Positions 31,442-53,936 of a stretch of DNA of 64,000 nt are shown here, one piece after another. The notes below the pieces were generated by a model. The model was not told the origin of the DNA. It was given only the letters and a program-made list of their open reading frames with translations, and did not search any database. A program made the position numbers and the translations under genes. Source of the stretch: a virus. Lineage: Duplodnaviria > Heunggongvirae > Uroviricota > Caudoviricetes. Where the stretch lies: IMG/VR virus record IMGVR_UViG_3300029914_000004; one strand, written 5' to 3'. Position 1 is the stretch's first letter. Each line of letters opens with the position of its first letter.

Positions 31442-31849
31442 ATGCTGAGCGGAAGTTGGAAGCGTGGTATGGATGCTGCATCTGCTGCGGCCCTGAGTAG
31501 CAACGGGCCGCAGAAGGGATTTCGCCTTGGCGCAGCACTTTATGCTGGTTCAAATTTGCTGGCTGCTGGGCATAATTTTTGGGGAAAGACTACTCCGATT
31601 TCCTCTTTTGATTCTTACAACGGCAATGTTCACGCGGAAATCAGTACGCTTGTGAAACGTAGATATTACGATAAGTCGAACAATCTTATTCTCTATGTTT
31701 CGCGTACTACTACAAATTCGCGCCAAACAGTTGAGCAATATGGATGTTCCCGTCCGTGTAATCGTTGCATGTCTGCTATAAAAGTTGCTGGCGTTCGACG
31801 TGTTCGATTCTTTGACGAGAATGGCGAACCTGCTGAAATCAAACTTTAA
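31442..31849 (+). CDS. Zn-dependent CMP/dCMP/tRNA deaminase-superfamily protein
   Basis: GAAL...AAGHN, VHAE, SRPCNRC, AGVRRV motifs. Confidence 0.85.
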   Translation: MLSGSWKRGMDAASAAALSSNGPQKGFRLGAALYAGSNLLAAGHNFWGKTTPISSFDSYNGNVHAEISTLVKRRYYDKSNNLILYVSRTTTNSRQTVEQYGCSRPCNRCMSAIKVAGVRRVRFFDENGEPAEIKL

Positions 31850-31954
31850 CTTGTTCATTCTAAAGGTCCAAAAATGGCTAAATTGCCCCATAAACCGCTC
31901 TAAGCCTTTGGTAATGTCTAAGTACCAGAAAGCAAAAAGAATCGCTACAAAGTC

Positions 31955-32014
31955 CAAAATAAGTATAGTGTTTTCAACGAGATACAAATCATTGAAAACA
32001 CTATACTTATTTTG
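31955..32014. repeat. perfect 23-bp inverted repeat directly upstream of a TTGACA box
   Basis: CAAAATAAGTATAGTGTTTTCAA / TTGAAAACACTATACTTATTTTG with 14-nt loop. Confidence 0.9.
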
Positions 32015-32837
32015 TGCTTGACAAATAACCTAAAGTTTGGTATTCTATATTTGTTGGTGGAGAGAATATGCCAGAAGCAATAGATTGGTCGAGTCGAAGG
32101 GCGATTGCGTGACGTAAGAATGACTGATAATCTGTCACTGCAAGATGGCAACACAGATTACGCTTGGGGAAAAACTTGAATCTTTTGGCTGGTCAATTCA
32201 GATTGTAATTGCATGTAAGAATATCGTGATTGCTGAAGAACGGTTGGAAGCCCTGAAGATTGACAAGTATGGACGGAGAAAATAATGGACGAATTTTACA
32301 ATTCGCTGAAACAGTTTGTTGATGGCTGGTGTCAGAACGAAAACAATAAACGGCGAATCAGTGACAATATTAGTCGTTCCAATTATGAAATTTTTTGGCT
32401 GAAAAATGAAATTAGCAAATTGGAATTGAATCTTTCTAAAAAACCATCTACCATTCGCCAGATCAATCAATACGAGCATCAAATTTTGGAGTTGAAAGTT
32501 AAGCTGGCGTTTGATCCTTGGTATGGTGCAAAGATTCAAGAGATGGAGAATGAAAATGACTGACAAAATGTTGAAAATTCTTTTGAAAAAACTCACGCCA
32601 TTTTCTGACACTAAATAATGGTATTGTTTTGCCAATAGAAATGGATTGGCTTATTAAGAATGGAGCAAAGAATCCTTATCCAAATCAAGATAACAATTTT
32701 GGTTATTGGATTAAAGGTGTAAAGACTGGTGAAGGCAGAAGTAGCTGTTTTTATTTTATTCCGTCTGGAGAAATTTTGAAACTTCTAATCAAGTGGCATC
32801 CGAACGAACCATCATTGCTTTAAGAAAGAGAGAAAAT

Positions 32838-33221
32838 ATGTCAAATAAGATTTTTACCGCAGAGATGTTCACAGCGACGAAATGGGACACAGCACAGGAT
32901 AAAGCTGATTTTGCTAACAAGTTTGTTAGTTTTGTTGAGTCAGGGTTCAAGGAAACACTCTTCACGAAGAAATTTTATACTCGTCTTTCAAATTGTTTTG
33001 GACACATCGCGTCCTATAACAAGCTTGGATTTTATGATAAATGGTTTTCAGATTTTGATTCGCAAGTGCGATTTTTAAATAACGCATTGACTCATCCAAG
33101 CTTTGGTGATGCGTCATACACTTATTCAGATGTTGAAAGAGCATTGAAGATGATAATTACCAATCGCCAGATGATTTCAGGAATTACCACCAGAATGATT
33201 ATGGAAAAATTGATGCGATAA
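32838..33221 (+). CDS. hypothetical protein
   Basis: ORF; ends MEKLMR. Confidence 0.6.
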   Translation: MSNKIFTAEMFTATKWDTAQDKADFANKFVSFVESGFKETLFTKKFYTRLSNCFGHIASYNKLGFYDKWFSDFDSQVRFLNNALTHPSFGDASYTYSDVERALKMIITNRQMISGITTRMIMEKLMR

Positions 33222-33436
33222 TGCGCGATAAAAATTGCAAAATATTAAAAGCAAATGACTATATTTTAATACATTTTTCATCCCAAGATGTATTGGCTCA
33301 AGTTATTGAGCCACAATCTAACAAGTTTAATCAAGCATGGTGCAGAATTCATAATGGCAATCAAACAATTATTGCTTTGAGTGCGTGTAGTTTAATTACA
33401 GAAAACGATGCACTAATTTGGAAGCTGGCGCAATGA
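33221..33436 (+). CDS. family B small protein
   Basis: MRDKNCKILKAND...DALIWKLAQ. Confidence 0.7.
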   Translation: MRDKNCKILKANDYILIHFSSQDVLAQVIEPQSNKFNQAWCRIHNGNQTIIALSACSLITENDALIWKLAQ

Positions 33437-33657
33437 CAGATAAAAATGGAACAAAGTTAAAAAATGGAGATTGGGTTAAAACATCACGTTGGCAAGAAGG
33501 TTGCTATGTTACAATAATGGGAAAAATTATAAAAATTATATACTTTGACAATCTTGCTATTATACAAGACGATAAAGGTTTTATGATTCGTAGAGTCAGT
33601 AATGAAATTGAATTGGCCACAATGGACGAAATGTTAATCTATAAGTTGGAGAGATAA
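33433..33657 (+). CDS. family B small protein
   Basis: MTDKNGTKLKNGDW...EMLIYKLER. Confidence 0.7.
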   Translation: MTDKNGTKLKNGDWVKTSRWQEGCYVTIMGKIIKIIYFDNLAIIQDDKGFMIRRVSNEIELATMDEMLIYKLER

Positions 33658-33888
33658 ATGTTAGATCGCTGCGGAAAAGAATTAAAAGTTGGAGATTGTA
33701 TACGATTTTCTCCTAATCCTGCACACGATACTTTTGATGAAATTTCTTTTATATATAAAATATATACGCAGCGTTCAATGAAAGACGCGGCTATATTTAA
33801 ATATAAAGATGTATTATATGCCAGAAATTCATGCGAAATAGAAAAAATTACCAATGAGGAGGCATTAATTTGGAAATTAGAAAGATAG
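33658..33888 (+). CDS. family B small protein
   Basis: MLDRCGKELKVGD...EALIWKLER. Confidence 0.7.
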   Translation: MLDRCGKELKVGDCIRFSPNPAHDTFDEISFIYKIYTQRSMKDAAIFKYKDVLYARNSCEIEKITNEEALIWKLER

Positions 33889-34103
33889 ATTGCTATAAAA
33901 AGCCAATAAGAATTGGAGATTATGTTTTATATTTTGGATTTAACGCAGTGGGAATAGTTATAGATTCAATTTCTTGCTACAACGATGAATCGTGTGTTTC
34001 ATTCTTTGGAGAAAATTACAACAACAAACTTTATTGGTTGGCATCATCGCAATTAAAAATAATTACCAAAAATGAAGCTTTAATTTGTATATTGGAAAAT
34101 TAA
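33870..34103 (+). CDS. family B small protein
   Basis: IDCYKKPIRIGDY...EALICILEN; start uncertain (ATA 33885?). Confidence 0.6.
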   Translation: MEIRKIDCYKKPIRIGDYVLYFGFNAVGIVIDSISCYNDESCVSFFGENYNNKLYWLASSQLKIITKNEALICILEN

Positions 34104-34112
34104 GAAAATTAT

Positions 34113-34343
34113 ATGACAGACAAAAACGGAAAAGAATTAAAAGTTGGAGATTATGCTTGGTTTTCAATAGAAAAAATTGAAACCAAATATGATAAAATTT
34201 TAATTAAACTTACCAAAGACAACTCAACTAATTATGACTGTTTATATAGTCTTGGCGAAACTCTAAGAAAAGGTGTAGCACGACCAGAATATTGCACGTT
34301 GGCAACATTAGACGAAGTGCTGATTTATAAGTTGGAAAGATAA
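34113..34343 (+). CDS. family B small protein
   Basis: MTDKNGKELKVGDY...EVLIYKLER. Confidence 0.7.
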   Translation: MTDKNGKELKVGDYAWFSIEKIETKYDKILIKLTKDNSTNYDCLYSLGETLRKGVARPEYCTLATLDEVLIYKLER

Positions 34344-34545
34344 TGAAAGACAAAAACGGAAAAGAATTAAAAGTAGGTGATTGGATTATTTTTCTGGAGG
34401 AATAGAACAGATCAGAGGTTTCTCTAGTATTGATTACAACTTAATAGCAATAATTAATATTGGGATATATACTACATGGAGATTTGGAGAGGAAATTTGG
34501 CTTGCTGAGAATGATGAAATATTAATACACAAATTGGAGGCATGA
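34343..34545 (+). pseudogene. family B gene frameshifted in a T5 run
   Basis: MKDKNGKELKVGDWIIF then continues in another frame to EILIHKLEA*; adding one T at 34389-34393 restores the frame. Confidence 0.65.
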
Positions 34546-34642
34546 TGAAATATAGAACTGATGAGCGTATTAAATAATGATGATTATGGTTGGCACTTAT
34601 TTTTCACTTGACTTTACTCTTAAAGTTTGATATCATTTTTAT

Positions 34643-35652
34643 ATGAAGAAATTATTTCAAACATTATATGGGTCATCTTTGTATGGAACAGCCACAGCTA
34701 ATTCTGACATAGACATCAAGGTTATTATTCTTCCTTCTTTAGATGATTTATTGCTAGGAATTTCTCCCAAGAATAAAGTCAAAAACAATAATAAAAAGTT
34801 TGGAGAAAAAAACACTGCTGAAAACATTGATATTGAGGAAATTCCATTACATATGTTTGCTAAAGATTTTATGGAAGGACAATCTTATGCAATTGAGTTA
34901 GCTTTCGCAGTTGAATGTGTTGATGCTGAACAAGCAATTTACGATGGAAGATTTCCAAAATTTGTTTCAGAATTAAGAAGTAAATTTTTGACTTCAAATA
35001 TTTTTGCTATTTGTGGTTATAGTTTGCATCAGGCGAATCTATATTCTGATAAAGGCGATAGATTGTGCGCTGCTTTTGAAGCTGAAAAATTGTATTCTGA
35101 ATTTCCACTATTGGATAAAATTTCAGATCATTCTGAAAACTTCAATAAAGAGGCAAATATTGTTCAGAATAAATTTCCTAAATATTTTCAAGTGACTGAA
35201 TATGCAGTTGACGCAACCAAAACTGTAATGCGCCCATGCGTTAAACTTCTTGAAAAGACTCTTCCATATTCAAATACTTTTGAAACAAACCTTGCAACTA
35301 TCAAAAAGCAGATTGGAAAGTTTGGTACAAGAGCCAAAGCCGCTTCTCTATCTGGCGCAGACTGGAAGGCAATTTCTCATAGTTTGAGAATTGTAAATGA
35401 AGGAATTGAGTTGCTTTCTGGAAAAAATTGATATATCCATATCCTAAAGAATATTGTGAATATCTGCTTAGTATTAAGCGCGGAGAACATTCAATTGAAG
35501 AAATTTCTGCCTTAATTAGTGATGGAGTTGATAAATTGAAAACTTTGTCTTTGAGTTCTAAATTGCCTGAATGCAATGCAGAACTTACAGAAAAATTCAA
35601 TATTTGGTTTTTGGAATGGTTGAAGAAATTTTACAGTTTGAAGGATTGTTGA
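34643..35652 (+). CDS. Pol-beta-superfamily nucleotidyltransferase (RlaP/PF10127-like), split by a -1 frameshift
   Basis: YGSSLYGT....SDID motif; ORFs 34643-35431 and 35428-35652 join at the A6 run 35422-35427. Confidence 0.7.
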
Positions 35653-35846
35653 CATTTCTTCTAGATTGTGGTATACTAATTATGAAAGGATTATATGACT
35701 AGTGCAACAGATTTCTATTTCAAGATTGACAAAGGCACTTTTTATTTTCCAATTATAAGCGAAGAAATTTCTTTTGATTTGGAAGATATAATGGCTTTCG
35801 CAGAAGCATATGCAAAATATGTAATTGAAGAGAAAGAAGGAAAATA

Positions 35847-36833
35847 ATGACTCCTGATTATGGAATAATTTGCGGCAGATTTCAGATACCAGAGTTGCAT
35901 GATGGCCACAGAGCATTGCTCAATGCTGTTGGGCAGTTGCATCCTAGAGTAATTGTATTCATTGGATGTGTTCCTGCTGGTGTGGCACCGACAAAAAATG
36001 ATCCTCTTGATTTTGATACCCGCCGACGGATGGTTCAACAGTTGTATCCAAGTTATGAAGTGTATCCAATTCATAATCGCAAGAGTGATGAACTATGGAG
36101 CGCAGATTTGGATCGACTAATTACTGAAAGAGTTCCATATGGAAAAGCAACATTGTATGGAAGTCGAGACAGTTTTGCTAAGAGTTACACTGGAAAGCGT
36201 AAAGTTGTTGAATTGACACTGGCTGTTTCCAGAAATATTTCTGGAACTGATTTGAGAAATGAAATTGCGAATGTGGTGCAGGACAGTCCAGCATTCCGAG
36301 CAGGAATTATTTATGGACAGTTGAACACGTTTGATCGCGTTATACCCACAGTTGATATTGCGATTATTCATCGAGGACTTCCAAAAATTGATGGAGTATC
36401 CAAAAATGATAACGGCGATACATACGTTGTAAATCCAACATGCGGGATTGAACTTCTGTTGGCAAAACGAGCAGATGAAGCTGGCTGGAGATTTCCTGGT
36501 GGTCACGCTATGGGGAAAAATCGCCCGCAGAATCAGAGCTATGAACACGATGCAAATATGGAAAGTTACGAGGAAACAGCAAGCTATCCTGAAAATTTGA
36601 AGTATATTGGAAGCACCCAGATTGATGATTGGCGTTATAAGGACACCCCTGAATCTATTAAAACTGTTTTCTTTCTTGGCGAAGTTATGACATTGGCAAG
36701 TGTTGGAGGAGATGATATTGCTACAACACGATTCTTCCCAATTGAAAAAGTAAGTGAAGAAATGTTTGAGCCAGAACATAAAATATTATTCAATATGTTA
36801 ATGAATTATTTAAAGAAGGAAAAGTATTTATAG
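35847..36833 (+). CDS. bifunctional NMN adenylyltransferase / Nudix hydrolase (NadM-Nudix type)
   Basis: GRFQ..ELHDGH, NDPLDFDTR, YGSRDSF, ISGT.LR; C-terminal Nudix box WRFPGG...ESYEET and GGDDI. Confidence 0.9.
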   Translation: MTPDYGIICGRFQIPELHDGHRALLNAVGQLHPRVIVFIGCVPAGVAPTKNDPLDFDTRRRMVQQLYPSYEVYPIHNRKSDELWSADLDRLITERVPYGKATLYGSRDSFAKSYTGKRKVVELTLAVSRNISGTDLRNEIANVVQDSPAFRAGIIYGQLNTFDRVIPTVDIAIIHRGLPKIDGVSKNDNGDTYVVNPTCGIELLLAKRADEAGWRFPGGHAMGKNRPQNQSYEHDANMESYEETASYPENLKYIGSTQIDDWRYKDTPESIKTVFFLGEVMTLASVGGDDIATTRFFPIEKVSEEMFEPEHKILFNMLMNYLKKEKYL

Positions 36834-36868
36834 TGCAGCAGTAAGTGAAATTATTGAAAGTCTAGAAG

Positions 36869-37054
36869 ATGAAAGAAATCTCTGATAAAGAAAAGAAAAT
36901 TTATTTAAAATTCTGTGATTGGGATATTGGACCAAAAAATTATTATTCTGGCCCTGCATATTATATTCATCCTGATACAACCAAATTTATGTTTATTGAT
37001 AATGCTTTCAATTATCAAATGCAATTGGATGGGCACGATGAAATATCCAAGTAA
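36869..37054 (+). CDS. small protein, tandem paralogue 1
   Basis: KIYLKFCDW...AFNYQMQLDG. Confidence 0.55.
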   Translation: MKEISDKEKKIYLKFCDWDIGPKNYYSGPAYYIHPDTTKFMFIDNAFNYQMQLDGHDEISK

Positions 37055-37241
37055 AGAAGAAATGAAAATTTACTTAAAATTTTGTGGATGGTGGGAATTA
37101 AATAATGATGAGTGGTTTCCTATTCCTTTATTGTTTCCGCCAAATCCAGAGCCAAGCGAAGCTACTGGATTTTACACAATTTTAGAAGCATTTAAATGGC
37201 AAATGAAAAAAGATGGGCAACTTGACAATTTAGACCAATAA
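37038..37241 (+). CDS. small protein, tandem paralogue 2
   Basis: KIYLKFCGW...AFKWQMKKDG. Confidence 0.55.
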   Translation: MKYPSKEEMKIYLKFCGWWELNNDEWFPIPLLFPPNPEPSEATGFYTILEAFKWQMKKDGQLDNLDQ

Positions 37242-37276
37242 TGATATACTAAGAACATAGAAAAAGGAGATTCAAA

Positions 37277-38695
37277 ATGCCGAGGCCGCTCGTAATTAAC
37301 CCACTTTTAGACGATGATAGTTATAAAAAAACTCACCCAAAAATGCTTCCAGATAATTTAACTGAGGCAATGAATTATTATTGTAATCGCGGAGGAATTT
37401 ATAGCGAAGCTGTGTTTTTTGGTCTTCAGTATCAGTTAATCTCTGAATTTGAAGGGAAGTTTTTCACTCAGGAAAATCTTGATGAAGCATATGCAGATAG
37501 CCAGATTCATTTTTATGATGGATTTCCTTATCCTAAAGAACAGTGGCAGTATATATTAGACAAATATGATGGAAGATTGCCTATTGAAATTAAAGCCATC
37601 AAAGAAGGACAGCCATTTAATATCTCCAATGATGGAGTAAATACTGTTGTATTTACAGTAGAAAGTACTGATGAAAAATGTGCATGGCTCCCAGGATGGT
37701 GCGAAACTCGTTTAATGCGTAATTGGTATGGTAGTATTGTTGCTACTCAGAGTCGAGAAGTTAAAAAATTGGCCAAGGAATATTTGACATTAACGGCTGA
37801 TTCTTATAATTCTCTTCCATTTATGTTGCATGATTTTGGAGGTAGAGCAGTATCTTGTACTCATCAGGCTGCACTCGGAGGCGCGGCTCATCTTATTAAT
37901 TTTAAAGGAACTGATACTGGAATTGCTATGAGTCTTTTGCATCAGTATTATGATGCACCACGAGTTTCTGCTTATAGCGTTCCTGCTTCTGAACATTTTG
38001 TTATGACTATGGAAGGACCAGAAGGAGAAAGAAGTGTAACTGGAAGAATTCTTGGAGTATATAAAGATGCTCCAATCGTAAGTATTGTTATTGATAGTTA
38101 TGATGATGAATATTTTGTTCGTGAAATTCTTGGTGGGACATTTCGTGACCAGATTTTACATGGAAAGAGCAAAATTGTTGCAAGACCTGATTCTGGCGAT
38201 CCAGAAATTAAAGTTCCAATTCTTTTGAATATCCTTGGTGATAGATTTGGTTATACCATCAATAACAAAGGATTCAAAGTTTTGAGCCCTTGTGTTGGCA
38301 TTCTTTGGGGAGATGGAATGGATATTTTTAGTATTCGCAAATTATATGAAGCTTTGCGTCTTGCTGGGTGGAGTGTTGAAAATACTGTAGTTGGAATGGG
38401 TGGCGGTTTATTACAGAAAATTAATCGAGATACGAGTCGAGCCGCGATGAAATTTTGTAATATTGTTTTAAATGGAGTAGATACACCAGTGTATAAAAAA
38501 CCAAAAGATGATCCATTCAAAGCCAGCTTTGCTGGAAGGCCAGCATTGGTTTATAGTGAAGCAACTGGTTTATATAGAACGGTTAAAGATAATGGAAATG
38601 GAGTATATGGAAATTGTCTTGAATTGGTTTTTAGAAACGGAAAAGTTCTTCGTCATCAGACATTGGAAGAAATTCGTCAGTTGGCTGATGTATAA
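37277..38695 (+). CDS. nadV: nicotinamide phosphoribosyltransferase (NAMPT)
   Basis: DSYKKTH, FFGLQY, LHDFGGR, GGAAHL.NFKGTD, SVPASEH, SIVIDSYD, RPDSGDP, GDG, GMGGGLLQK..RDT. Confidence 0.95.
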   Translation: MPRPLVINPLLDDDSYKKTHPKMLPDNLTEAMNYYCNRGGIYSEAVFFGLQYQLISEFEGKFFTQENLDEAYADSQIHFYDGFPYPKEQWQYILDKYDGRLPIEIKAIKEGQPFNISNDGVNTVVFTVESTDEKCAWLPGWCETRLMRNWYGSIVATQSREVKKLAKEYLTLTADSYNSLPFMLHDFGGRAVSCTHQAALGGAAHLINFKGTDTGIAMSLLHQYYDAPRVSAYSVPASEHFVMTMEGPEGERSVTGRILGVYKDAPIVSIVIDSYDDEYFVREILGGTFRDQILHGKSKIVARPDSGDPEIKVPILLNILGDRFGYTINNKGFKVLSPCVGILWGDGMDIFSIRKLYEALRLAGWSVENTVVGMGGGLLQKINRDTSRAAMKFCNIVLNGVDTPVYKKPKDDPFKASFAGRPALVYSEATGLYRTVKDNGNGVYGNCLELVFRNGKVLRHQTLEEIRQLADV

Positions 38696-39345: not shown

Positions 39346-39358
39346 GAAAGGCAAAATT

Positions 39359-40669: not shown

Positions 40670-40744
40670 GGGGCAGTAGCTCAGAGGGAGAGCGCTGCGT
40701 TAGCATCGCAGAGGTCGAGATTTCAAAATTCTCCTGCTCCACCA
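40670..40744 (+). tRNA. tRNA-Ala(AGC)
   Basis: acceptor GGGGCAG/CTGCTCC with G3:U70, ACCA; stem CTGCG/CGCAG, loop TT-AGC-AT. Confidence 0.85.
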
Positions 40745-40818: not shown

Positions 40819-40893
40819 GGGGAATAAGTGTTGATAGGAGCACGATAGATTCGCAATTTATAAGGGTGAGGGCAGTTCTCACATTCTCCACAA
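40819..40893 (+). tRNA. tRNA-Ala(CGC), non-canonical T-loop
   Basis: GGGGAAT/ATTCTCC with G3:U70; loop TT-CGC-AA; T-loop GGCAGTT. Confidence 0.7.
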
Positions 40894-40971: not shown

Positions 40972-41064
40972 GGGCTATGGGGCTGCTAGGGTGGCCACTG
41001 GTTTTGCACTCCAGAATCATCGAGAAATCGATACAGCGGGATTCAAATTCCCGATAGTCCACCA
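40972..41064 (+). tRNA. tRNA-Ala(TGC) with long variable arm
   Basis: GGGCTAT/ATAGTCC with G3:U70, ACCA; loop TT-TGC-AC; 22-nt variable arm. Confidence 0.8.
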
Positions 41065-41894: not shown

Positions 41895-41971
41895 GCCGCG
41901 TTCGTATAACGGATTATTATGCTCCGCCTTTAACGGAATCGATATGGGTTCAAATCCCATGCGCGGCACCA
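41895..41971 (+). tRNA. tRNA-Lys(TTT), C33
   Basis: loop CC-TTT-AA; GCCGCGT/GCGCGGC, ACCA. Confidence 0.75.
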
Positions 41972-42990: not shown

Positions 42991-43051
42991 TGGCTTGTAG
43001 CATAATTGGCAATGTGTGACCCTGTTAAGGTCAAAGATGATGGTCCAGCCA
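42991..43051 (+). pseudogene. T-arm-deleted duplicate of tRNA-Asn(GTT)
   Basis: identical to 47275-47351 except GTTCGAGTCCCTCTGAG is replaced by T. Confidence 0.85.
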
Positions 43052-43062
43052 AAATTTAAAGT

Positions 43063-43395: not shown

Positions 43396-43469
43396 GCGGG
43401 GATAGTTTAAATAGTAGAATATCTGAGTTTCCGCTCAGAAGATGGGTTGCAAGTACCCTAACCGCTCCA
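43396..43469 (+). tRNA. degenerate tRNA-Gly(TCC)
   Basis: CTGAG-TTTCCG-CTCAG (6-nt loop); two acceptor mismatches; TCCA. Confidence 0.5.
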
Positions 43470-43480: not shown

Positions 43481-43565
43481 GCGGGAGAAGCCTACTTGGT
43501 ATGGCACTGGTCTTCCAAACCAGAGATGAAAATCGCTGCGAGTTCAAATCTCGTCTCCCGCTCCA
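43481..43565 (+). tRNA. tRNA-Gly(TCC) with long variable arm
   Basis: GCGGGAG/CTCCCGC-TCCA; CT-TCC-AA; 14-nt variable arm. Confidence 0.9.
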
Positions 43566-44892: not shown

Positions 44893-44963
44893 GTGCTTGT
44901 AGCTCAGTGGTAGAGCAGCCCCATTAAGAGGGCTGGTCGTTGGTTCGATTCCAACCAAGTATC
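44893..44963 (+). tRNA. tRNA, probably Leu(TAA) short-arm; anticodon uncertain
   Basis: canonical D and T arms; GCCCC-ATTAAGA-GGGCT with one mismatch; no CCA. Confidence 0.55.
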
Positions 44964-46450: not shown

Positions 46451-46462
46451 CTAGATTTATAT

Positions 46463-46540
46463 GGCTCTATAGCTTAATTAGATTAAAGCACTTCACCGTC
46501 AATGAAGGAGATGGGGATGCAACTTCCCTTGGAGCCGCCA
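46463..46540 (+). tRNA. tRNA-Asp(GTC), C33
   Basis: CTTCA-CCGTCAA-TGAAG; G73, CCA. Confidence 0.85.
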
Positions 46541-46679: not shown

Positions 46680-46755
46680 GGCAACTTAACACTGATGGTC
46701 AGTGTGCTAGACTGAAAATCTAGAAAACTCAGATCGTTACTGAGAGTTGCCACCA
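46680..46755 (+). tRNA. tRNA-Phe(GAA)
   Basis: CTAGA-CTGAAAA-TCTAG; T-loop ATCGTTA; ACCA. Confidence 0.85.
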
Positions 46756-47261: not shown

Positions 47262-47274
47262 TTAGTTTAAATGT

Positions 47275-47351
47275 TGGCTTGTAGCATAATTGGCAATGTG
47301 TGACCCTGTTAAGGTCAAAGATGATGGGTTCGAGTCCCTCTGAGCCAGCCA
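47275..47351 (+). tRNA. tRNA-Asn(GTT)
   Basis: TGACC-CTGTTAA-GGTCA; G73, CCA. Confidence 0.85.
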
Positions 47352-47379
47352 AAAATTTAGTTGTTGAAGGGTGTGCCGA

Positions 47380-47769: not shown

Positions 47770-47885
47770 CTCAATTGGTAGAGCGGGCGGCTGTGCGAGA
47801 TAGATAATGGAATTTAACCAGTTCAAATCTGGAATCTCGAAAAGTAACCGTCAGGTTGGGGGATCGTGGCCCTCCGAAGGAGCCA
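47760..47885 (+). tRNA. tRNA-Asn(GTT) with 50-nt insert inside the anticodon
   Basis: TCCTTCG/CGAAGGA-GCCA; GGCGG/CCGTC; CTGT[47795-47844]TAA. Confidence 0.75.
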
Positions 47886-47890
47886 AAAAT

Positions 47891-48028
47891 TATAGTGGTG
47901 TGTTTTGAACGGATAACAAGTCAGACTCTATGTGTATACAACGGTGATATGACACTGATTGGGATGGCCGACTGTTGCGAACGGGAATATGACCGTGAAG
48001 TGCCCCAAAGTCTGTGTCTGCCACTATA
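47891..48028 (+). ncRNA. 138-nt structured RNA candidate
   Basis: TATAGTGG/CCACTATA closing stem; CAGAC/GTCTG pairing; GC-richer than flanks. Confidence 0.45.
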
Positions 48029-48381
48029 AATAATTTTATACAATTGTCAGTCAATGATTAGGAAAATATTTCAACAAGGAGAAAATATGGTATATATAAA
48101 TAATAACGGAGTTGTTTTAACAGGAACGGATGCGTGGCCTGTGAATCCATACAAGTCCGAGTCTACAACAAAAATTTTTGAAAATAATGGAGTATCAGAT
48201 TTTACGACGGTACATTTTATAGCAGATGATCCTGGTATTCCGAGAAAATCAGCACGATATAATAATAAACAGAAATTAATTTCAATTTGTGAAAATAATA
48301 ACATATTATATGAAGTCGTTCCTGACGAGTAAAATTATATTTTCTGAAGTTAACATACTATAATTAATCATAAATAATAGT

Positions 48382-48612
48382 ATGAATTATAGTAAACTAT
48401 ATAAAAATATCATTAATAATGCGAAGAATAGAAACAATAATTTATGTTATATTGAATCTCATCATATAATTCCGCGATCTTTGGGTGGAGAGAATGGCAG
48501 TAATAATTTAATAAATCTTACTGCGATAGAACATTTTATATGTCATTTCTTATTGACAAAAATGTATAAAATAATACCGAATTGGTCTAATGGCAATGAC
48601 GCTTCGCTTTGA
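48382..48612 (+). pseudogene. truncated HNH endonuclease running into tRNA-Gln
   Basis: Y.E.HHIIPRSLGG.N...NL..LTA.EHFICH.LL.K, then tRNA sequence. Confidence 0.75.
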
Positions 48613-48650
48613 ACGAAGAAGCACAGATTCGATTTCTGTATTCGGTGCCA
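48576..48650 (+). tRNA. tRNA-Gln(TTG)
   Basis: CTTCG-CTTTGAA-CGAAG; ACCGAAT/ATTCGGT-GCCA. Confidence 0.85.
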
Positions 48651-48895
48651 AAATATTATGAAAAATAAACCAAAAGTTGGACAAAAAATTAGATTAAATA
48701 AATTTGGAGTTAGGCAAATTTATAATAGTTCTATAGCTCCGTCTGGTTTACTGAGGCAAGTGTTTACAATTACTGAAGTAGACGAAGAATCAATGACAGA
48801 GCCAGAAAAACTTGGATGATTGAAGTTGATGATCCAGAGTTAAATCAATTTATGCTTGACAACTGGTGTTTTGATTTAGTGTCATAAATATTAGT

Positions 48896-49384
48896 ATGAG
48901 ATTAAATGAATTTCAAAATAACACAACTTCTACTGAAGTGACCAATTTTGTTAAAGATATAATGCAAATATTGGGTTTATCATCATTTAAATCTCCAGTA
49001 ATTATATATGACGATAATTTTCCTGAAAAAACATTGGGCAATTGTTCATGGTATATTGGAGAAAAAGAAGTTGAAATTCACATTAATATAAAAGTTTTAG
49101 ATTTCAATGACGAAATGATTTTATTTAGGATTTTGGCACATGAATTGTGTCATATGGCAGAATATTTATTGTATTGGATTCCTACTTTAGAAAAACAATT
49201 AAAAATTGTTCATGGAAAAGTTGGATATGAAAAAGAAAAATTTAGAGATTGGTGTAATAACGAAATACAAAAAGCAAGTCATGGACCTCAATGGCAACAT
49301 TTTGCTGATTTATTAAATAGTGAAGTTCCAAATTTTGTTACAAAAACATCAGACAAAAGTTATGATTTAACCAGCAAACAGTAG
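48896..49384 (+). CDS. SprT-like zinc metalloprotease
   Basis: ILAHELCH...HGPQW; MRLNE N-terminus; TAAATA upstream. Confidence 0.75.
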   Translation: MRLNEFQNNTTSTEVTNFVKDIMQILGLSSFKSPVIIYDDNFPEKTLGNCSWYIGEKEVEIHINIKVLDFNDEMILFRILAHELCHMAEYLLYWIPTLEKQLKIVHGKVGYEKEKFRDWCNNEIQKASHGPQWQHFADLLNSEVPNFVTKTSDKSYDLTSKQ

Positions 49385-49521
49385 TAAGCAGAATAACAGA
49401 TAACAAAACTGTAATATGTAAAAAGTAGTTTGCTAAATTTGGAGAACGACTGTAGCCTGATAAAAAGTCGTGGCAGCTTGGAGAGACAGCGAAAATAATT
49501 TAATATAAATGAAGATTTATC

Positions 49522-49550
49522 TTGACAAAGGATAAATAAAGATGTATACT
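49522..49550 (+). promoter_or_regulatory. sigma70-type promoter
   Basis: TTGACA-N17-TATACT. Confidence 0.85.
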
Positions 49551-49580
49551 ACAAGAGTAGTCAGAAATTTGGAGAATAAA

Positions 49581-49655
49581 ATGACATTCAGACATACACA
49601 TATCGAGCCAAGTGACCCACGCATTACAGTCATGGAACCCCGTTTCTGTGTCTGA
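49581..49655 (+). CDS. 24-aa peptide MTFRHTHIEPSDPRITVMEPRFCV
   Basis: GGAG RBS 6 nt upstream, own promoter and terminator. Confidence 0.45.
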   Translation: MTFRHTHIEPSDPRITVMEPRFCV

Positions 49656-49676
49656 AGCTAGATAGTTTGTATTATC

Positions 49677-49708
49677 AAACCTTCTGGCAAATGTCAGAAG
49701 GTTTTTTG
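49677..49708 (+). terminator. intrinsic terminator
   Basis: AAACCTTCTG/CAGAAGGTTT followed by T run. Confidence 0.75.
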
Positions 49709-49925
49709 ATGTTGGAGTGAACATGAAAGAATATAGAATTACAACTCAGAATATAGATTACGGCCAAGAAAATGATTGCGTTATTGATGAGAATGATCCA
49801 ATAAACGAGATTAAGAAATCACTCTTGCTTGGTGGGTTAGGGATGAATAAACCAAAATTGAATACTGAGTTAATTGATAAATTTTGGCCCAAGAAAGATT
49901 AGCAGTGAATTTACCTGCAACAAGT

Positions 49926-50014
49926 GTGCTAGAGGCAACTATCGGTTTGTTGCGCCAGATTGTGACCCTGGACTCGAAAGAGTATTACGGATTCGACTTC
50001 CGCCTAGCACCCCA
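49926..50014 (+). tRNA. tRNA-His(GTG) with long variable arm
   Basis: TT-GTG-AC; C73; 15-nt variable arm ACTC-GAAA-GAGT. Confidence 0.85.
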
Positions 50015-50038
50015 TGTTTAGTAGTAAAGTTTAAATGT

Positions 50039-50126
50039 CGGAATGGCGGCAGGCCTGGTTTGCCTCCACGTTTGGGGCGTGGCGTTCGTAAGAACATCGT
50101 AGGTTCAAATCCTATCATTCCGACCA
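50039..50126 (+). tRNA. tRNA-Pro(TGG) with long variable arm
   Basis: CGGAATG/CATTCCG-ACCA; TT-TGG-GG; 16-nt variable arm. Confidence 0.85.
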
Positions 50127-50167
50127 TAATATTAATAGTAATGTTTCATGTTTATATAAAGTTTAAT

Positions 50168-50246
50168 CAGAGTGAGGGCCATTTGGAAGGCCACTTGGTC
50201 CGGAGCCAAGAAAATCGTGAGAGTTCAAATCTCTCCACTCTGACCA
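50168..50246 (+). tRNA. tRNA-Pro(CGG), C33
   Basis: CTTGG-TCCGGAG-CCAAG; ACCA. Confidence 0.85.
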
Positions 50247-50277
50247 TTTTAAACTAAATACATCTGGAGGGTTTACT

Positions 50278-50574
50278 ATGTATTCAGATGAATTTAGAAA
50301 ATATATGAAAGTAGTTGATGATAATTCTGAAGAAGATTTAGATCAATGGGGTAGACTTGTTAAGAAAATGTTTGGAGAAGATTCTTATGTTGTTAAAGAA
50401 AAAACATCATATGGTCCCAAATATAGAGTTTATGCTAGATTTTATCCACAAGCAATATTGGGGCTCAAAGGAGAAGATGCTGAAATTGAAAAAGCTGTAG
50501 AGAAAGCAAAAGATACTATAGAACATTACAAAACTCCCAAAAAAGCAGTCATAAAATATGAAGGTGGGTGGTAA
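50278..50574 (+). CDS. late-type hypothetical protein
   Basis: TAAATA and GGAGG upstream. Confidence 0.55.
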   Translation: MYSDEFRKYMKVVDDNSEEDLDQWGRLVKKMFGEDSYVVKEKTSYGPKYRVYARFYPQAILGLKGEDAEIEKAVEKAKDTIEHYKTPKKAVIKYEGGW

Positions 50575-50943
50575 ATGAAACTTTGGTTAGATGATATTCG
50601 TGATCCAAAGAGATATGGTTATCATGATATGTATTGGGCTAAAAATTATAATGAAGCGATTGCTGCTTTGAAACTTGGTAAAGTAACATTTGCTTCATTA
50701 GATCATGATATTGGTGCTTGTGAAGATTGTGTAAAATCGTTGTCACACATTGGAGACATGCGCTCGCCTGAGACAACATTTTTTAATCATTGCTCACATG
50801 AAAAATCTGGTTACGATGTAATTTGTTTTATGGAAGATAATGATATATGGCCAACAGACGGTGTAAAAGTTCATAGTATGAATCCAGTTGGCAAAGAAAG
50901 AATGAATCAAGTGATTAGAAAGCAGTATGGAAGAACTTGGTAG
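50575..50943 (+). CDS. cyclic-phosphate-processing receiver-domain (cREC-like) protein
   Basis: MKLWLDDIR, W.KNY.EAI, SLDHD.G, GYD, VHS.NPVG. Confidence 0.75.
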   Translation: MKLWLDDIRDPKRYGYHDMYWAKNYNEAIAALKLGKVTFASLDHDIGACEDCVKSLSHIGDMRSPETTFFNHCSHEKSGYDVICFMEDNDIWPTDGVKVHSMNPVGKERMNQVIRKQYGRTW

Positions 50944-50955
50944 GTATTAATTTGT

Positions 50956-51029
50956 GGAGTATTAGATTAACAGTGGATCGTATCCCTTTCAAGGATAAGG
51001 AGTGGGGGCAGCACCCACATACTCTACCA
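50956..51029 (+). tRNA. tRNA-Glu(TTC)
   Basis: TATCC-CTTTCAA-GGATA; T-loop GGCAGCA; ACCA. Confidence 0.8.
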
Positions 51030-51169
51030 TAAGTTCAAATGCATTTTGCGCTACCTTGCACCTGAATATGAATATACTTGTTGTACTTGTAATAAATTAT
51101 TTAGAACTGATAGAAAGAGAAAAACACAAAATGTTTGTTGTAGCAGAGAATGTAGTTGGCATCAAAAAT

Positions 51170-51245
51170 GATCTATTAGAATAGTTGGTTAGTTCGCAAC
51201 TCCCTCAAAGTTGAAACGAGAGTTCAAATCTCTCATAGATTACCA
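51170..51245 (+). tRNA. tRNA-Glu(CTC), C33
   Basis: CAACT-CCCTCAA-AGTTG; ACCA. Confidence 0.85.
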
Positions 51246-51263
51246 TAAAGTTTGATGATTTAT

Positions 51264-51339
51264 AGGCCTATAGCTCAAGCGGCAGAGCACACGATTGATA
51301 ATCGTGAGGTTGAATCTTCGATTGATTCTAGGCCTACCA
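51264..51339 (+). tRNA. tRNA-Ile(GAT)
   Basis: CACGA-TTGATAA-TCGTG; ACCA. Confidence 0.9.
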
Positions 51340-51350
51340 AAAATTAATAT

Positions 51351-51428
51351 GCGCTCGTATGCCGCTTCGCTTCGAACGAAGAGAAAGCTAATGGATACAT
51401 ACAGGTTCGAGTCCTGCCGAGCGTTCCA
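51351..51428 (+). tRNA. rearranged tRNA-Arg(TCG) with no D arm 5' of the anticodon arm
   Basis: GCGCTCG/CGAGCGT-TCCA; CTTCG-CTTCGAA-CGAAG only 7 nt after the acceptor; 19-nt segment containing GCTAATGGATA 3' of it. Confidence 0.65.
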
Positions 51429-51441
51429 CATTGGAGTTAGA

Positions 51442-52070
51442 ATGAATTGTACTTTATGTAATAAAGAAACAAAAATCCAAAATTTTGTTCGCAATCTTGC
51501 TCAGCAAAATTTTCAAATAAAAATAGAGAACGATCTTTTGATTCACGAGTAAAAATAAGTTCGTCTTTAAGAAATTGTAAATCTCTTTCAACAAGTATTG
51601 AATGTTCAATTTGTGCTAGGAAATTTTATAAATTTGAGTCTAAAGGTAGAAAATATTGTAGTCTTAAATGTTGTGGAATTGCAAAGAAAAATAAATTCAC
51701 TGCTGATTTTTCTCTGAATGGAAAGGGAAATCATAAAAGAGTGTTAATACATGAGCGTGGTTATAAATGCGAACGATGTAAAAATAGTGAATGGATGGGA
51801 ATAGAAATTAATTTGCAATTAGAACATAAGGATGGAAATCATTTTAATAATGAAAAAACAAATTTAGAGCTTTTATGCCTCAATTGCCATAGTCAAACAT
51901 TAACATTTAATCGTAAGAAAACAGCAAAACTTATTTCTGACGATGAATTTTTAAAAGTATTAAATTCATCTAAAAATATTCGTCAATGTTTATTAAAATT
52001 AGGTTTGCAGCAAGGTAGCACAAATTATGATAGAGCCAAAAGATTATTAAGAAGAAATATGCAGCCGTAG
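51442..52070 (+). CDS. HNH endonuclease with Zn fingers, frameshifted at an A5 run
   Basis: MNCTLC; one extra A at 51471-51475 gives NPKFCSQSC ... LEHKDGNHFNN..NLELLCLNCHS. Confidence 0.75.
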
Positions 52071-52147
52071 CCTAGTGGATTCAGGCACCAGTCTACGAAA
52101 CTGGAGAGGAAACTCTAACGCAAGTTCGAATCTTGTCGGCTGCACCA
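52061..52147 (+). tRNA. tRNA-Arg(ACG) with long variable arm
   Basis: CCAGT-CTACGAA-ACTGG; AGAG-GAAA-CTCT arm; overlaps the HNH stop. Confidence 0.9.
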
Positions 52148-52158
52148 AAAGTTTAAAT

Positions 52159-52234
52159 GCAATTATAGATTAGCGGCTAAATCGGATGGTCTACACCCAT
52201 TTCATCACAGGTTCGAGTCCTGTTAATTGCACCA
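52159..52234 (+). tRNA. tRNA-Val(TAC), C33
   Basis: GATGG-TCTACAC-CCATT; ACCA. Confidence 0.85.
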
Positions 52235-52236
52235 AG

Positions 52237-52401
52237 TTTTCTCTGCATCGTGGAATGGACACGAGGCGTTTACCAGGTGATTTGACGCTAAGTTTACTGA
52301 TTTGCATTGCGATCACGGCAATGCAATGGTTGGTCTAAGAGACTAGTAAAATAGTGGTAATATATCAGTTTAGCGATTGATAAGTAACCCACCAGAGAAA
52401 A
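52237..52401 (+). ncRNA. 165-nt multibranch RNA candidate
   Basis: TTTTCTCTG/CAGAGAAAA closing stem; TTGCATTGC/GCAATGCAA, CGTG/CACG, TATCA/TGATA helices. Confidence 0.5.
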
Positions 52402-52466
52402 ATAACTTGTAGCATTATTCTATATTGTGCTATAATAAAGAAGTAAATCAAAGGAGAAATATATTC

Positions 52467-53441
52467 GTGAGTACTTTAAGTACTAAATATTTACCACTCC
52501 CATCAAAAGTTAATCCGGATAAATTAGAAACTCTTTTAAAGAAGCAAGGAAACAAAAATAATATTATTCAAGATGTATATTCTGAGGTTATAGATTTCAT
52601 CACTCAAAATAATCTCATATCAAATGAATTATTAATACCAGAAAAACCTCCAATCCGCATGTTAGAAATAGGCAAAGTTCTATTGTGTGTCATTGAAGAT
52701 TATTCCAAATTTAATACTGAAATGCTCCCCAAAAAATATGTGGAGAATTTTCATTTTTCTTGGGTTAAAAAAGGGTATCGAGTAATTTGGATTAAAAGAT
52801 TTGAGTGGGAAGATTTGAGAAAGCGTAATGTATTACAATCTTTAATTCTTCATGCTTGCGGTAAAACAAAAAATAGATTTTTCGCAAGGAAAACATACGC
52901 TGAAATTATTCCTAGTAAAGATTTAAGAGAATTTTTTAACAATTCTTCTTTTTATGGTTATCGCAATGCTTCGTTTGCTGTTTGTTTAAAAGATAAAAAG
53001 ACTAATGAAATTTTAATGGCTATGAATTTTGGACACCCATATTATGGAAAAAACAAGTATGGAGAAGGCGCTGTAGAATGTATCAGAGCAGCTTCTAAAC
53101 CTCACACAGTTATTGTTGGCGGAATGTCAAAATTAATGAAATTTATGATTGAGCAGTTCGGAAATACTTTTAAATCTTGCGTGTATTATATTGACAGTTC
53201 CCATTATGGGAGTGGATCGATGGGGGCGGCTGGATTTACTTATTCTCATTTTGCTGGAGGAGCGTCACATAATGTTTGGAAAAAAACAGGAAGTATGTTT
53301 ATGAGAACACCAGCATTACATCAGGAAATAATGTTTATGATTAAACAAAACGAAATAGTTGCAGTTCCAGATGTGGGAAATGAAACTTTTATATTTAATA
53401 CCAGCAACGAAATTGGTAATGCAAGTTCAACAGATACATAA
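52467..53441 (+). CDS. Hef-like putative homing endonuclease
   Basis: GYRVIWI..FEW, R.FARK, GGMSKL.KF, YID motifs; free-standing inside the tRNA array. Confidence 0.55.
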   Translation: MSTLSTKYLPLPSKVNPDKLETLLKKQGNKNNIIQDVYSEVIDFITQNNLISNELLIPEKPPIRMLEIGKVLLCVIEDYSKFNTEMLPKKYVENFHFSWVKKGYRVIWIKRFEWEDLRKRNVLQSLILHACGKTKNRFFARKTYAEIIPSKDLREFFNNSSFYGYRNASFAVCLKDKKTNEILMAMNFGHPYYGKNKYGEGAVECIRAASKPHTVIVGGMSKLMKFMIEQFGNTFKSCVYYIDSSHYGSGSMGAAGFTYSHFAGGASHNVWKKTGSMFMRTPALHQEIMFMIKQNEIVAVPDVGNETFIFNTSNEIGNASSTDT

Positions 53442-53510
53442 AGATTGTGTAAGTATGTATTTTCTTGGATCAAAACCAAAGGATACAAATTTCATGATAA
53501 ATAATAATGT

Positions 53511-53585
53511 GCCGAAATGGTGAAAGTGGCATCACGAGACTCTCGTAAAGTTTAATTACGTCCTCAATTGACGTTTTCGGCTCCA
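53511..53585 (+). tRNA. tRNA-Thr(CGT)
   Basis: AGACT-CTCGTAA-AGTTT; T-loop CTCAATT; TCCA. Confidence 0.75.
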
Positions 53586-53598
53586 AAGTTTAATATGT

Positions 53599-53675
53599 GG
53601 CCCTATAGTCTAGTTGGATCAGGCAACTGCCTTCTAAGCAGTATCACGGGAGTTCGAGTCTCTCTAGGGTCACCA
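53599..53675 (+). tRNA. tRNA-Arg(TCT)
   Basis: ACTGC-CTTCTAA-GCAGT; ACCA. Confidence 0.9.
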
Positions 53676-53687
53676 AAAGTTTACTAT

Positions 53688-53762
53688 GCCTCTTAATAAT
53701 AGGTAGCGATTTACTTCACTTGTAATGAAGATAGCTCGGCGCAAGTCCGGGAAGAGGCTCCA
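53688..53762 (+). tRNA. tRNA-Thr(TGT)
   Basis: CTTCA-CTTGTAA-TGAAG; T-loop CGCAAGT; TCCA. Confidence 0.8.
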
Positions 53763-53771
53763 AAATATTAT

Positions 53772-53848
53772 GCTCTCGTGGTCTAAATGGAGAAGGCGCT
53801 TCTTTCCTAAAGAAGAAGATGGGGATTCAAATTCCTCCGAGAGTACCA
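53772..53848 (+). tRNA. tRNA-Arg(CCT)
   Basis: CTTCT-TTCCTAA-AGAAG; ACCA. Confidence 0.85.
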
Positions 53849-53861
53849 AATTTAAATATAC

Positions 53862-53936
53862 GCCCTTTAATAATAGGTAGCGATTTGCAACTCCAGTAAA
53901 GTTGATAGCTCGGCGCAAATCCGGGAAAGGGCTCCA
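53862..53936 (+). tRNA. tRNA-Thr(AGT), paralogue of Thr(TGT)
   Basis: CAACT-CCAGTAA-AGTTG; D and T arms nearly identical to 53688; TCCA. Confidence 0.8.

Follow-up and report, generated by a model that had tools for sequence, protein, structure and literature searches.

Anticodons that begin with adenosine (A34) are rare outside eukaryotes, and reviews describe phage tRNA sets as being without the ANN anticodons that are 'prohibited' in bacteria as well (PMC8007984). In this work, we describe a phage from peat metagenomes that carries four A34 tRNA genes (Ala-AGC, Thr-AGT, Arg-ACG, and Ser-AGA) together with a zinc deaminase of 135 amino acids (aa). The analyzed stretch of 64,000 nucleotides (nt), called here the window, corresponds to bases 19536-83535 of one 127,373-bp virus contig (IMG/VR record IMGVR_UViG_3300029914_000004; 33% GC), the completeness of which is 49% according to CheckV. 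A first-pass annotation of the window had proposed that either the deaminase is a broadened TadA making inosine (I34) in the Ala and Thr tRNAs, or unmodified A34 tRNAs match phage NNU codons and escape host anticodon nucleases. We consider it rather probable that the A34 tRNAs are functional, read NNU codons directly, and, apart from Arg-ACG, stay unmodified, and that the deaminase is not their partner.

Known Systems with A34 tRNAs

Bacterial TadA reads the anticodon-loop sequence. Its consensus is YUACGAA in Escherichia coli and Klebsiella and is relaxed only to YUAMGRA in Streptococcus pyogenes, where Leu-AAG is also edited (PMC11472039). E. coli TadA modified three of 15 A34 anticodon variants, and in Oenococcus oeni inosine was found in only two of four A34 tRNAs (PMC11066159). 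Unmodified A34 is found in very few natural tRNAs, and how these decode in vivo is poorly known; unmodified A34 reads mostly U, and also C and G where the first two codon positions are G/C-rich, as in Ala codons (PMC11066159).

A comparable set is that of Leuconostocaceae, including O. oeni (Leu-AAG, Thr-AGU, Ser-AGA, and Arg-ACG). Both this set and that of the phage belong to AT-rich genomes and have A34 instead of G34 in four-codon boxes (PMC11066159; PMC8007984). Thr-AGU and Ser-AGA are common to both. The phage set differs in being virus-encoded, in containing Ala-AGC and no Leu-AAG, and in the origin of its A34 genes, which derive not from G34 but from U34 genes, through a switch in an ortholog and a tandem duplication. 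Mycoplasma capricolum has a Thr(AGU) with unmodified A34, that is, the same anticodon in an AT-rich genome with no known deaminase for it; according to PMC11066159, citing Andachi 1987 and Inagaki 1995, this tRNA reads ACU and some other ACN codons. The mycoplasmal tRNA is part of a minimal set, whereas the phage Thr-AGT is an extra gene beside CGU and UGU isoacceptors, with C33 and a non-canonical T loop.

The eukaryotic ADAT2/ADAT3 system produces I34 in tRNAs for Ala, Thr, Ser, Arg, Pro, Val, Leu, and Ile. The phage has four of these eight anticodons (AGC, AGU, AGA, and ACG) and no G34 tRNA in the corresponding boxes. In contrast to that system, no ADAT2/3-like or TadA-like enzyme was found in the half-complete phage record, the Ala and Thr boxes retain U34 isoacceptors, and NNC codons are depleted instead of favored.

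A34 tRNA Genes of the Peat Phage

The four A34 genes are real tRNA genes. Unless the genome is named, all positions below refer to the window.

40670-40744, + strand: tRNA-Ala(AGC), A34 at 40702; ARAGORN, Rfam 54.7 bits
53862-53936, + strand: tRNA-Thr(AGT), A34 at 53895; cloverleaf scanner and covariation, not ARAGORN or Rfam
52061-52147, + strand: tRNA-Arg(ACG), A34 at 52095; ARAGORN, Rfam 58.4 bits, fold z = -3.1
Genome 85027-85121, 1.5 kb beyond the window end: tRNA-Ser(AGA), with A34

Ala-AGC has the anticodon loop UUAGCAU, the tRNA-Ala identity pair G3:U70 (found in Ala-CGC as well) with discriminator A73, and an encoded CCA; its minimum-energy fold is the cloverleaf. The loop is CUACGAA in Arg-ACG, which bears a 15-nt extra arm, and CUAGAAA in Ser-AGA. 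Thr-AGT carries the loop CCAGUAA (with C33), G1-C72, C2-G71, G35, U36, U73, and an encoded CCA. The identity set of E. coli ThrRS comprises G1-C72, C2-G71, and G35-U36, and both this set and the cloverleaf are satisfied by Thr-AGT.

Thr-AGT and Thr-TGT were missed by ARAGORN and by Rfam, even at E<=10; Thr-AGT escapes the standard programs because its T loop (CGCAAAU) is non-canonical and its D stem is weak. Both genes were recovered by a cloverleaf scanner that demands an acceptor stem of 7 bp, T and anticodon stems of 5 bp each, and a D stem, and that also recovers His-GTG and Glu-TTC. The two Thr genes are 81% identical, and two acceptor-stem and three anticodon-stem pairs are changed on both sides and still paired. 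Their unusual T arm recurs in a third homolog, also a Thr-TGT, from metagenome locus L147, an unrelated and GC-richer phage contig, where this gene adjoins Arg-TCT and Arg-CCT, as in the window. Across these three sequences, 96.8% of stem cells are paired and 8 of 21 pairs are changed on both sides; none of 500 shuffles equaled this result, and slid registers reached at most 56% pairing. A metagenome scan with the Thr T-arm pattern revealed no second Thr-AGT (the matches were the L147 Thr-TGT and two chance ones), while the Thr D-arm 18-mer gave two chance matches in IMG/VR, neither of them a tRNA. Ala-AGC and Thr-AGT are letter-identical in contigs of other peat samples (runs X3 and X4), and since independent peat contigs carry the same letters, the A34 bases are not assembly errors.

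The other Ala and Thr isoacceptors are as follows:

40819-40890, + strand: tRNA-Ala(CGC); Rfam 35.4 bits and scanner, not ARAGORN
40972-41064, + strand: tRNA-Ala(TGC), variable region of 22 nt; ARAGORN and scanner
53511-53585, + strand: tRNA-Thr(CGT); ARAGORN and scanner
53688-53762, + strand: tRNA-Thr(TGT), non-canonical T loop CGCAAGU, parent of the AGT copy; scanner and covariation

Ala-CGC has an odd T loop (GGCAGUU), and its 3' end is ACAA, so that CCA is not encoded. The Ala (AGC, CGC, and TGC) and Thr (AGT, CGT, and TGT) boxes described in the first-pass annotation could thus be located in full, the former with ARAGORN (AGC and TGC) and Rfam (CGC), the latter with ARAGORN (CGT) and with the scanner and covariation (TGT and AGT). 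Arg-ACG is present as stated there, and the reported absence of GGC and GGT tRNAs holds both for the window and for the whole 127,373-bp record. In this record, about 49% complete, no G34 tRNA of any four-codon box was found by any method used. The anticodons of the four-codon boxes are as follows:

Ala: AGC, CGC, TGC
Thr: AGT, CGT, TGT
Ser (UCN): AGA, CGA
Arg (CGN): ACG and an odd TCG-like gene
Pro: TGG, CGG
Gly: TCC
Val: TAC
Leu (CUN): TAG

Origin of the A34 Genes

Homologs of the deaminase, 56-69% identical and in the same gene order, occur in five IMG/VR contigs, and an identical deaminase is encoded by a contig of 148.6 kb. The tRNA arrays of these relatives are syntenic with that of the peat phage and have G34 or U34 at the genes where it has A34. 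The relative G002 encodes Ala-TGC/CGC, Thr-TGT, Ser-GGA/TGA/CGA, and Arg-TCG/TCT, to which the cloverleaf scanner adds one Arg-ACG and no further A34 gene. Ala-GGC, Thr-GGT, and Ser-GGA are found in G001, and Thr-GGT in G005.

Ala-AGC is 78% identical to the Ala-TGC of G002, with an identical T arm, and in the relatives L084 and L121 the same gene has a TGC anticodon. Because the orthologs in relatives are TGC and the T arm is identical, Ala-AGC is seen to have arisen by a U34-to-A34 switch in an orthologous gene, the former role of which is covered by a second, structurally different Ala-TGC. Thr-AGT is a tandem duplicate of Thr-TGT that subsequently underwent the same U34-to-A34 switch, and Ser-AGA is probably a recent derivative of a U34 gene as well.

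The body of Ala-AGC (D arm GCUCAGAGGCAGAGC, T arm GAGAUUUCAAAAUUCUC) recurs in many unrelated IMG/VR phage contigs (L022-L140), where 88 distinct tRNAs combine it with at least 19 different anticodons, which suggests a phage tRNA scaffold that is either mobile or convergent. Among these 88 IMG/VR tRNAs, all built on this widespread T-arm scaffold, 54 have T at position 34, 20 have G, 14 have C, and none has A.

Codon Usage in Boxes with A34 tRNAs

Codons were counted in non-overlapping, ATG-started open reading frames of at least 100 aa, 121 in the peat phage and 111 in the comparator G002 (34.2% GC vs. 33.0%), a sister phage that has no Ala, Thr, or Ser A34 tRNA and only Arg-ACG. The frequent use of GCT and ACT pointed out in the first-pass annotation was borne out, as these are the commonest Ala and Thr codons (GCU 0.42 with GCC 0.08; ACU 0.49 with ACC 0.08); in the Ser box, UCU reaches 0.46 and UCC 0.07. 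The changes in the NNU:NNA ratio relative to G002 are listed below, first for the whole record and then for 44 orthologous genes:

Ala: 1.77-fold; 2.7-fold
Thr: 1.88-fold; 2.3-fold
Ser: 1.56-fold; 1.3-fold
Arg: 1.78-fold; 2.2-fold
Val: 1.15-fold; 0.89-fold
Leu: 1.22-fold; 1.09-fold
Pro: 1.13-fold; 1.32-fold
Gly: 0.57-fold; 0.59-fold

The rise in NNU codons is confined to the boxes with an A34 tRNA, as expected under translational selection if these tRNAs work as NNU readers. Since Arg-ACG is present in G002 as well, the Arg values do not provide a clean test. For Ala, the NNU:NNA ratio is lower in five of five relatives than in the peat phage. NNC codons are rare everywhere, and U/(U+C) is about 0.85 genome-wide; their low share is thus mainly due to mutational bias, and the rarity of these codons, which inosine reads well, gives a mild hint against I34.

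Anticodon Loops and Known TadA Enzymes

At loop positions 32-38, Arg-ACG fits the TadA consensus. The loops of Ala-AGC, Thr-AGT, and Ser-AGA fail both consensus sequences known for bacterial TadA, YUACGAA and YUAMGRA. Differences among these three loops, and between them and the Arg loop, fall at positions 32, 33, 35, 36, and 38.

The 135-aa Deaminase

The HAE/PCxxC deaminase announced at position 31442 is indeed encoded there.

31442-31849, + strand: zinc deaminase of the CDA superfamily, 135 aa; Pfam PF00383, 31.7 bits

HAE (H64-A65-E66) and P105-C106...C109 are invariant in 26 homologs; such zinc-site motifs are superfamily-wide and do not discriminate among its members. S103, E132, R73, R88, and R122 are invariant too, and R8 and R104 nearly so.

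EPCxMC is a synapomorphy of TadA/Tad2 (Iyer et al. 2011, PMC3239186). These enzymes are typified, as is ADAT2, by a helix 4 between strands 4 and 5, which are parallel, and by two helices after strand 5 (PMC3239186). The helix-4 division holds TadA/Tad2 and the dCMP deaminases, and the C-terminal helices hold the anticodon arm in TadA and ADAT2 (PMC3239186). The phage protein shares with TadA the CDA core and the HAE/PCxxC zinc site, and the Arg-ACG loop of the phage is a perfect TadA substrate. Unlike TadA, the protein has no EPCxMC; the motif of its family is (G/A)CSRPCxxC(M/L), with no Glu before Pro. An AlphaFold2 model (pLDDT 85, pTM 0.81) predicts a CDA core in which strand 4 (118-124) is followed by a five-residue turn and strand 5 (130-134). 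Neither helix 4 nor helices after strand 5 are seen in this model, and the chain ends at residue 135, an end position common to all homologs aligned. As modeled, the deaminase would lie outside the helix-4 division.

Cytidine deaminases (CDDs) are structurally similar to the phage protein. It has their antiparallel C-terminal hairpin of strands 4 and 5 and an invariant Glu (E132) at the end of strand 5, and distant members of its family lie amid ribonucleotide reductase and dUTPase genes. It departs from most CDDs in having His (HAE) for the Cys of CAE and PCxxC(M/L) without the Arg of PCxxCR, and sequence searches with it did not recover CDDs. Compared with solved structures, the family profile matched only dCMP or dCMP/dCTP deaminases (9hfq, 4p9c, 2w4l, and 2hvv), weakly, with E 2e-4 to 5e-3. 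Matches to the PHROG dCMP deaminases were also weak (2.8e-6, and 6e-15 for a homolog in the phage G008). Unlike dCMP deaminases, the family lacks the Asn of HAExNA, reading HAE-(I/V)-(M/S/A)-x-L instead; HAExNA is present in the PDB targets and in the canonical dCMP deaminase with which the protein coexists in the phage. The hhalign probability was 72% over 110 columns against this canonical enzyme and 45% over 78 columns against E. coli TadA.

In Foldseek searches, CDDs, dCMP deaminases, and blasticidin-S deaminases took the top ranks; TadA was absent from the best 50 PDB and best 30 Swiss-Prot matches, an absence that is not used here as evidence. CDDs align to residue 134, and dCMP deaminases stop at about residue 126. 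In an exhaustive comparison, VIA Z values were 13.5 for the CDD 3dmo (116 residues, through residue 135), 12.1-12.3 for dCMP deaminases, 11.8 for guanine deaminase, and 11.4 for Staphylococcus aureus TadA. The 135-aa protein is best described as a minimal CDA-fold deaminase belonging to a large uncharacterised phage family.

This family includes 45 close homologs and 232 representatives at 50% identity clustering, nearly all of 120-140 aa, and the ESM Atlas clusters containing the deaminase have up to 1,836 members and are 97-100% viral. The deaminase is kept in G002, whose sole A34 gene is Arg-ACG. A family member with 29% identity is encoded by G008, whose genome is complete, has terminal repeats, and contains ten tRNAs, none with A34; there the gene is flanked by NrdD/NrdG (anaerobic ribonucleotide reductase) and dUTPase genes. 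In G008 and in G006, both complete phages, the family member is the sole PF00383 protein. In close relatives, the deaminase lies 1-8 kb downstream of a ribonucleotide reductase gene. No homolog was found in G010-G014, IMG/VR contigs that share the Ala T-arm scaffold, and at 27-74% completeness they are uninformative. The ribonucleotide reductase gene of the peat phage (20102-22147) has a LAGLIDADG domain at its N-terminal end, which is probably an intein or a homing endonuclease fusion.

The suggestion of a broadened TadA is not upheld, given the missing EPCxMC, helix 4, and C-terminal helices, a profile that matches only dCMP deaminases, and the presence of the family in relatives without Ala, Thr, or Ser A34 tRNAs. 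A search with E. coli TadA found no TadA-like gene in the half-complete record, and PF14437 matches the canonical dCMP deaminase only.

Proposed Decoding and Its Alternatives

We propose that Ala-AGC, Thr-AGT, and probably Ser-AGA result from recent changes at position 34 of U34 genes, and that the main task of these tRNAs would be to read, by Watson-Crick pairing, the GCU, ACU, and UCU codons, which are very abundant in the phage. A34 would most likely be left unmodified, a state that would be safe because all A34 tRNAs belong to four-codon boxes. Arg-ACG is an ordinary bacterial-type tRNA in which host TadA can make ICG, and the 135-aa deaminase would most likely act on a free pyrimidine nucleoside or nucleotide as part of a nucleotide-pool module. 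The sequence data show the genes with their structure and origin, the codon shift, and the fold (as modeled) and family distribution of the deaminase; we infer both the unmodified state of A34 and the deaminase substrate. For the match of unmodified A34 to NNU codons, the second reading of the first-pass annotation, the box-specific shift relative to the sister phage and the failure of three loops to fit every known bacterial TadA consensus argue together.

Several observations weigh against this proposal. The UCN box holds only AGA and CGA, which leaves UCA as the sole frequent A-ending codon without a phage U34 tRNA, as expected if AGA became IGA; no Ser-TGA was found in the 700-bp gap from Ser-CGA to Ser-AGA, either with relaxed ARAGORN or by eye. 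This hint of inosine is weakened by the half-complete state of the record, in which no Met tRNA was found either. The codon comparison draws essentially on a single sister genome and on a record that is about half complete. As for the deaminase, TadA scores only about 2 Z units below the best match to the model, and fold alone would give no sharp separation of the families. The phage already has a canonical dCMP deaminase (161 aa, genome 9593-10078, between primase-like and DnaB-like helicase genes), which matches PBCV-1 bi-DCD (PDB 7fh4) with E 6e-23. The phage thus has two CDA-family deaminases, and a second pyrimidine deaminase needs its own explanation. Finally, candidate tRNA-related neighbors are the tRNA array itself, 9 kb downstream of the deaminase, and two genes:

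30245-30688, + strand: peptidyl-tRNA hydrolase 2 (PTH2)-like candidate, 147 aa; PF01981, E 3e-4, 21.4 bits, below the cut-off of 23; conserved directly upstream of the deaminase in relatives
34643-35431, + strand: nucleotidyltransferase of the Pol-beta type; PHROG 388, with weak matches to RlaP and NTP_transf_2; in relatives also found in synteny with the deaminase

One alternative is that the main benefit of the A34 (and C33) variants lies in escape from host anticodon-loop nucleases or tRNA-targeting toxins, codon matching being secondary. Phage tRNAs with a changed anticodon loop that evade anticodon nucleases are documented (PMC10264068), and the peat phage has many unusual loops (C33 in at least seven tRNAs), an almost complete tRNA set of its own, and possible tRNA-repair genes in the vicinity. 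However, this system has not been linked to any nuclease that acts at position 34 of Ala, Thr, or Ser(UCN) anticodons, the same boxes keep U34 and C34 isoacceptors, and codon matching predicts the box-specific rise in NNU codons, which escape alone does not. We regard escape as the main benefit as unlikely.

The A34 tRNAs could also be edited to I34 by a TadA of the host with broadened specificity, like the streptococcal and Oenococcus enzymes for Leu-AAG. Bacterial TadA enzymes with an expanded range exist (PMC11472039), extra A34 tRNAs belong to AT-rich hosts (PMC8007984), and the Ser box without a U34 tRNA would fit such editing. Known expansions, however, reach only Leu-AAG (UAMG), and Thr-AGU and Ser-AGA of O. 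oeni remain unedited (PMC11066159). The three loops are dissimilar from each other and from Arg, as described above, with even C33 in Thr-AGT, and the A34 genes are recent U34 switches and not copies of host-like genes. This explanation is still a little harder to sustain, and we consider it improbable.

It is more improbable that the 135-aa protein is a novel minimal tRNA A34 deaminase that converts Ala-AGC, Thr-AGT, and Ser-AGA, along with Arg-ACG, to I34 for eukaryote-like decoding. Such a role would account for a second deaminase beside the canonical dCMP deaminase and for its synteny with the PTH2-like and nucleotidyltransferase genes upstream of the tRNA array. The helix-2 motif of the protein is closer to HAEIMAL of TadA than to HAExNA of dCMP deaminases, the close relatives that carry it all have at least Arg-ACG, A34-G35 is common to the three non-Arg loops, and the Ser box has AGA and CGA without UGA. 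These points are set against the absence of EPCxMC, of helix 4, and of the helices by which TadA-type enzymes hold the anticodon arm (PMC3239186), and against the low hhalign value for E. coli TadA. The family has thousands of phage members; G002, which has no extra A34 tRNAs, retains it, as does G008, which has no A34 tRNA at all and in which it lies amid nucleotide-metabolism genes (ribonucleotide reductase and dUTPase). The NNC codons that I34 would read well make up only 0.07-0.08.

That A34 of the Ala, Thr, and Ser tRNAs is converted to I34 during infection at all, whether by the 135-aa deaminase or by another enzyme, seems unlikely to us. If it were true, this would be a bacterial virus with eukaryote-like inosine decoding in four codon boxes, in which the Ser box (AGA and CGA) would be read like the bacterial Arg box with ICG and CCG. 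Were the 135-aa protein responsible, a CDA core of this size would suffice for broad A34 editing without ADAT-type RNA-binding extensions.

That the A34 genes are decaying, non-functional copies with neutral anticodon mutations in a redundant array is very improbable: debris in the array (a truncated Asn copy at 42991-43052 and interrupted tRNAs) and a Thr-AGT that has C33 and is missed by standard tRNA finders would fit decay, but the stems are all preserved and show compensatory changes, the identity elements and CCA are retained, the genes are identical across samples, the same A34 design recurs in four boxes, and codon usage has moved in exactly those boxes.

Other Features of the tRNA Array

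The ARAGORN count is 24 tRNAs for the window and 29 for the whole record, or 33 with inserts allowed. C33 in place of the near-universal U33 is found in at least seven of the phage tRNAs (Lys-TTT, Asp-GTC, Pro-CGG, Glu-CTC, Val-TAC, Thr-AGT, and Tyr-GTA), located as follows:

41895-41971, 46463-46540, 50168-50246, 51170-51245, 52159-52234, 53862-53936, and genome 83463-83553: tRNAs with C33

As other tRNAs of the phage share it, C33 is no gene-specific defect of Thr-AGT. Such widespread C33 may bear on escape from anticodon nucleases; among the shared-scaffold IMG/VR tRNAs, it occurs in four of 88.

Long extra or variable arms of 14-22 nt are carried by tRNAs that normally belong to class I (Ala-TGC, Gly-TCC, His-GTG, Pro-TGG, Arg-ACG, Trp-CCA, and Cys-GCA), and the extra arm of Arg-ACG forms a clean 4-bp hairpin. 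T loops depart from the standard UUCRANU in many tRNAs (GGCAGUU, UGCAACU, AUCGUUA, GGCAGCA, CUCAAUU, and CGCAAGU), which is why several of them are missed by Rfam or ARAGORN.

40972-41064, 43481-43565, 49926-50014, 50039-50126, 52061-52147, 63821-63914, and genome 85128-85219: tRNAs with long arms
40819-40890, 46463-46540, 46680-46755, 50956-51029, 53511-53585, and 53688-53936: tRNAs with non-canonical T loops

At 44893-44963 lies a 71-nt class-I tRNA that ARAGORN calls Leu(TAA); by eye it appears to have an 8-nt anticodon loop (CAUUAAGA) and no encoded CCA, and it could be a suppressor or a four-base decoder. The truncated tRNA-Asn(GTT) copy mentioned above comprises the 5' two-thirds of the gene and is identical to the intact gene at 47275-47351, 4.3 kb downstream, which shows recent recombination within the tRNA array. 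A degenerate Gly-TCC-like element occupies 43396-43469.

Related Phages

Nearly all genes and every tRNA of the phage are carried by the + strand. Megablast with the tRNA region gave no matches among GenBank phages, and a conserved protein has only distant kin, with 35-41% identity, in jumbo phages (XacN1, FLC9, and Vi1-like). The phage represents a peat lineage distantly related to jumbo phages of the XacN1/RsoM2USA type.

In the relative G001, a 360-kb contig (L012 and L013), ARAGORN finds two CTA (amber) and one TTA (ochre) suppressor-type tRNAs, and its calls also include Asn-ATT, Leu-AAG, and Arg-GCG. These calls point to possible stop-codon recoding and to further odd anticodons in the lineage. 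A 157-aa deaminase of G001 (L153 3081-3554, - strand; PF00383, 97 bits) was considered as a phage TadA and rejected as being, by eye, guanine/nucleoside-deaminase-like; this putative assignment is based on its CEPCPMC motif and C-terminal GFDDEFIY. It adjoins a putative ThyX (assigned by eye) and a canonical dCMP deaminase, and three CDA-family deaminases are present in G001.

Significance

The peat phage offers one genome with four A34 tRNAs whose recent U34 origin is traceable, and the sister phage G002, without the Ala, Thr, and Ser A34 genes, provides a natural before-and-after comparison. Together, they form a clean system for studying why A34 is avoided, what unmodified A34 reads, and how fast codon usage follows a change in the tRNA set. 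The locus also points to a large uncharacterised family of very small phage deaminases, the substrate of which is worth determining.

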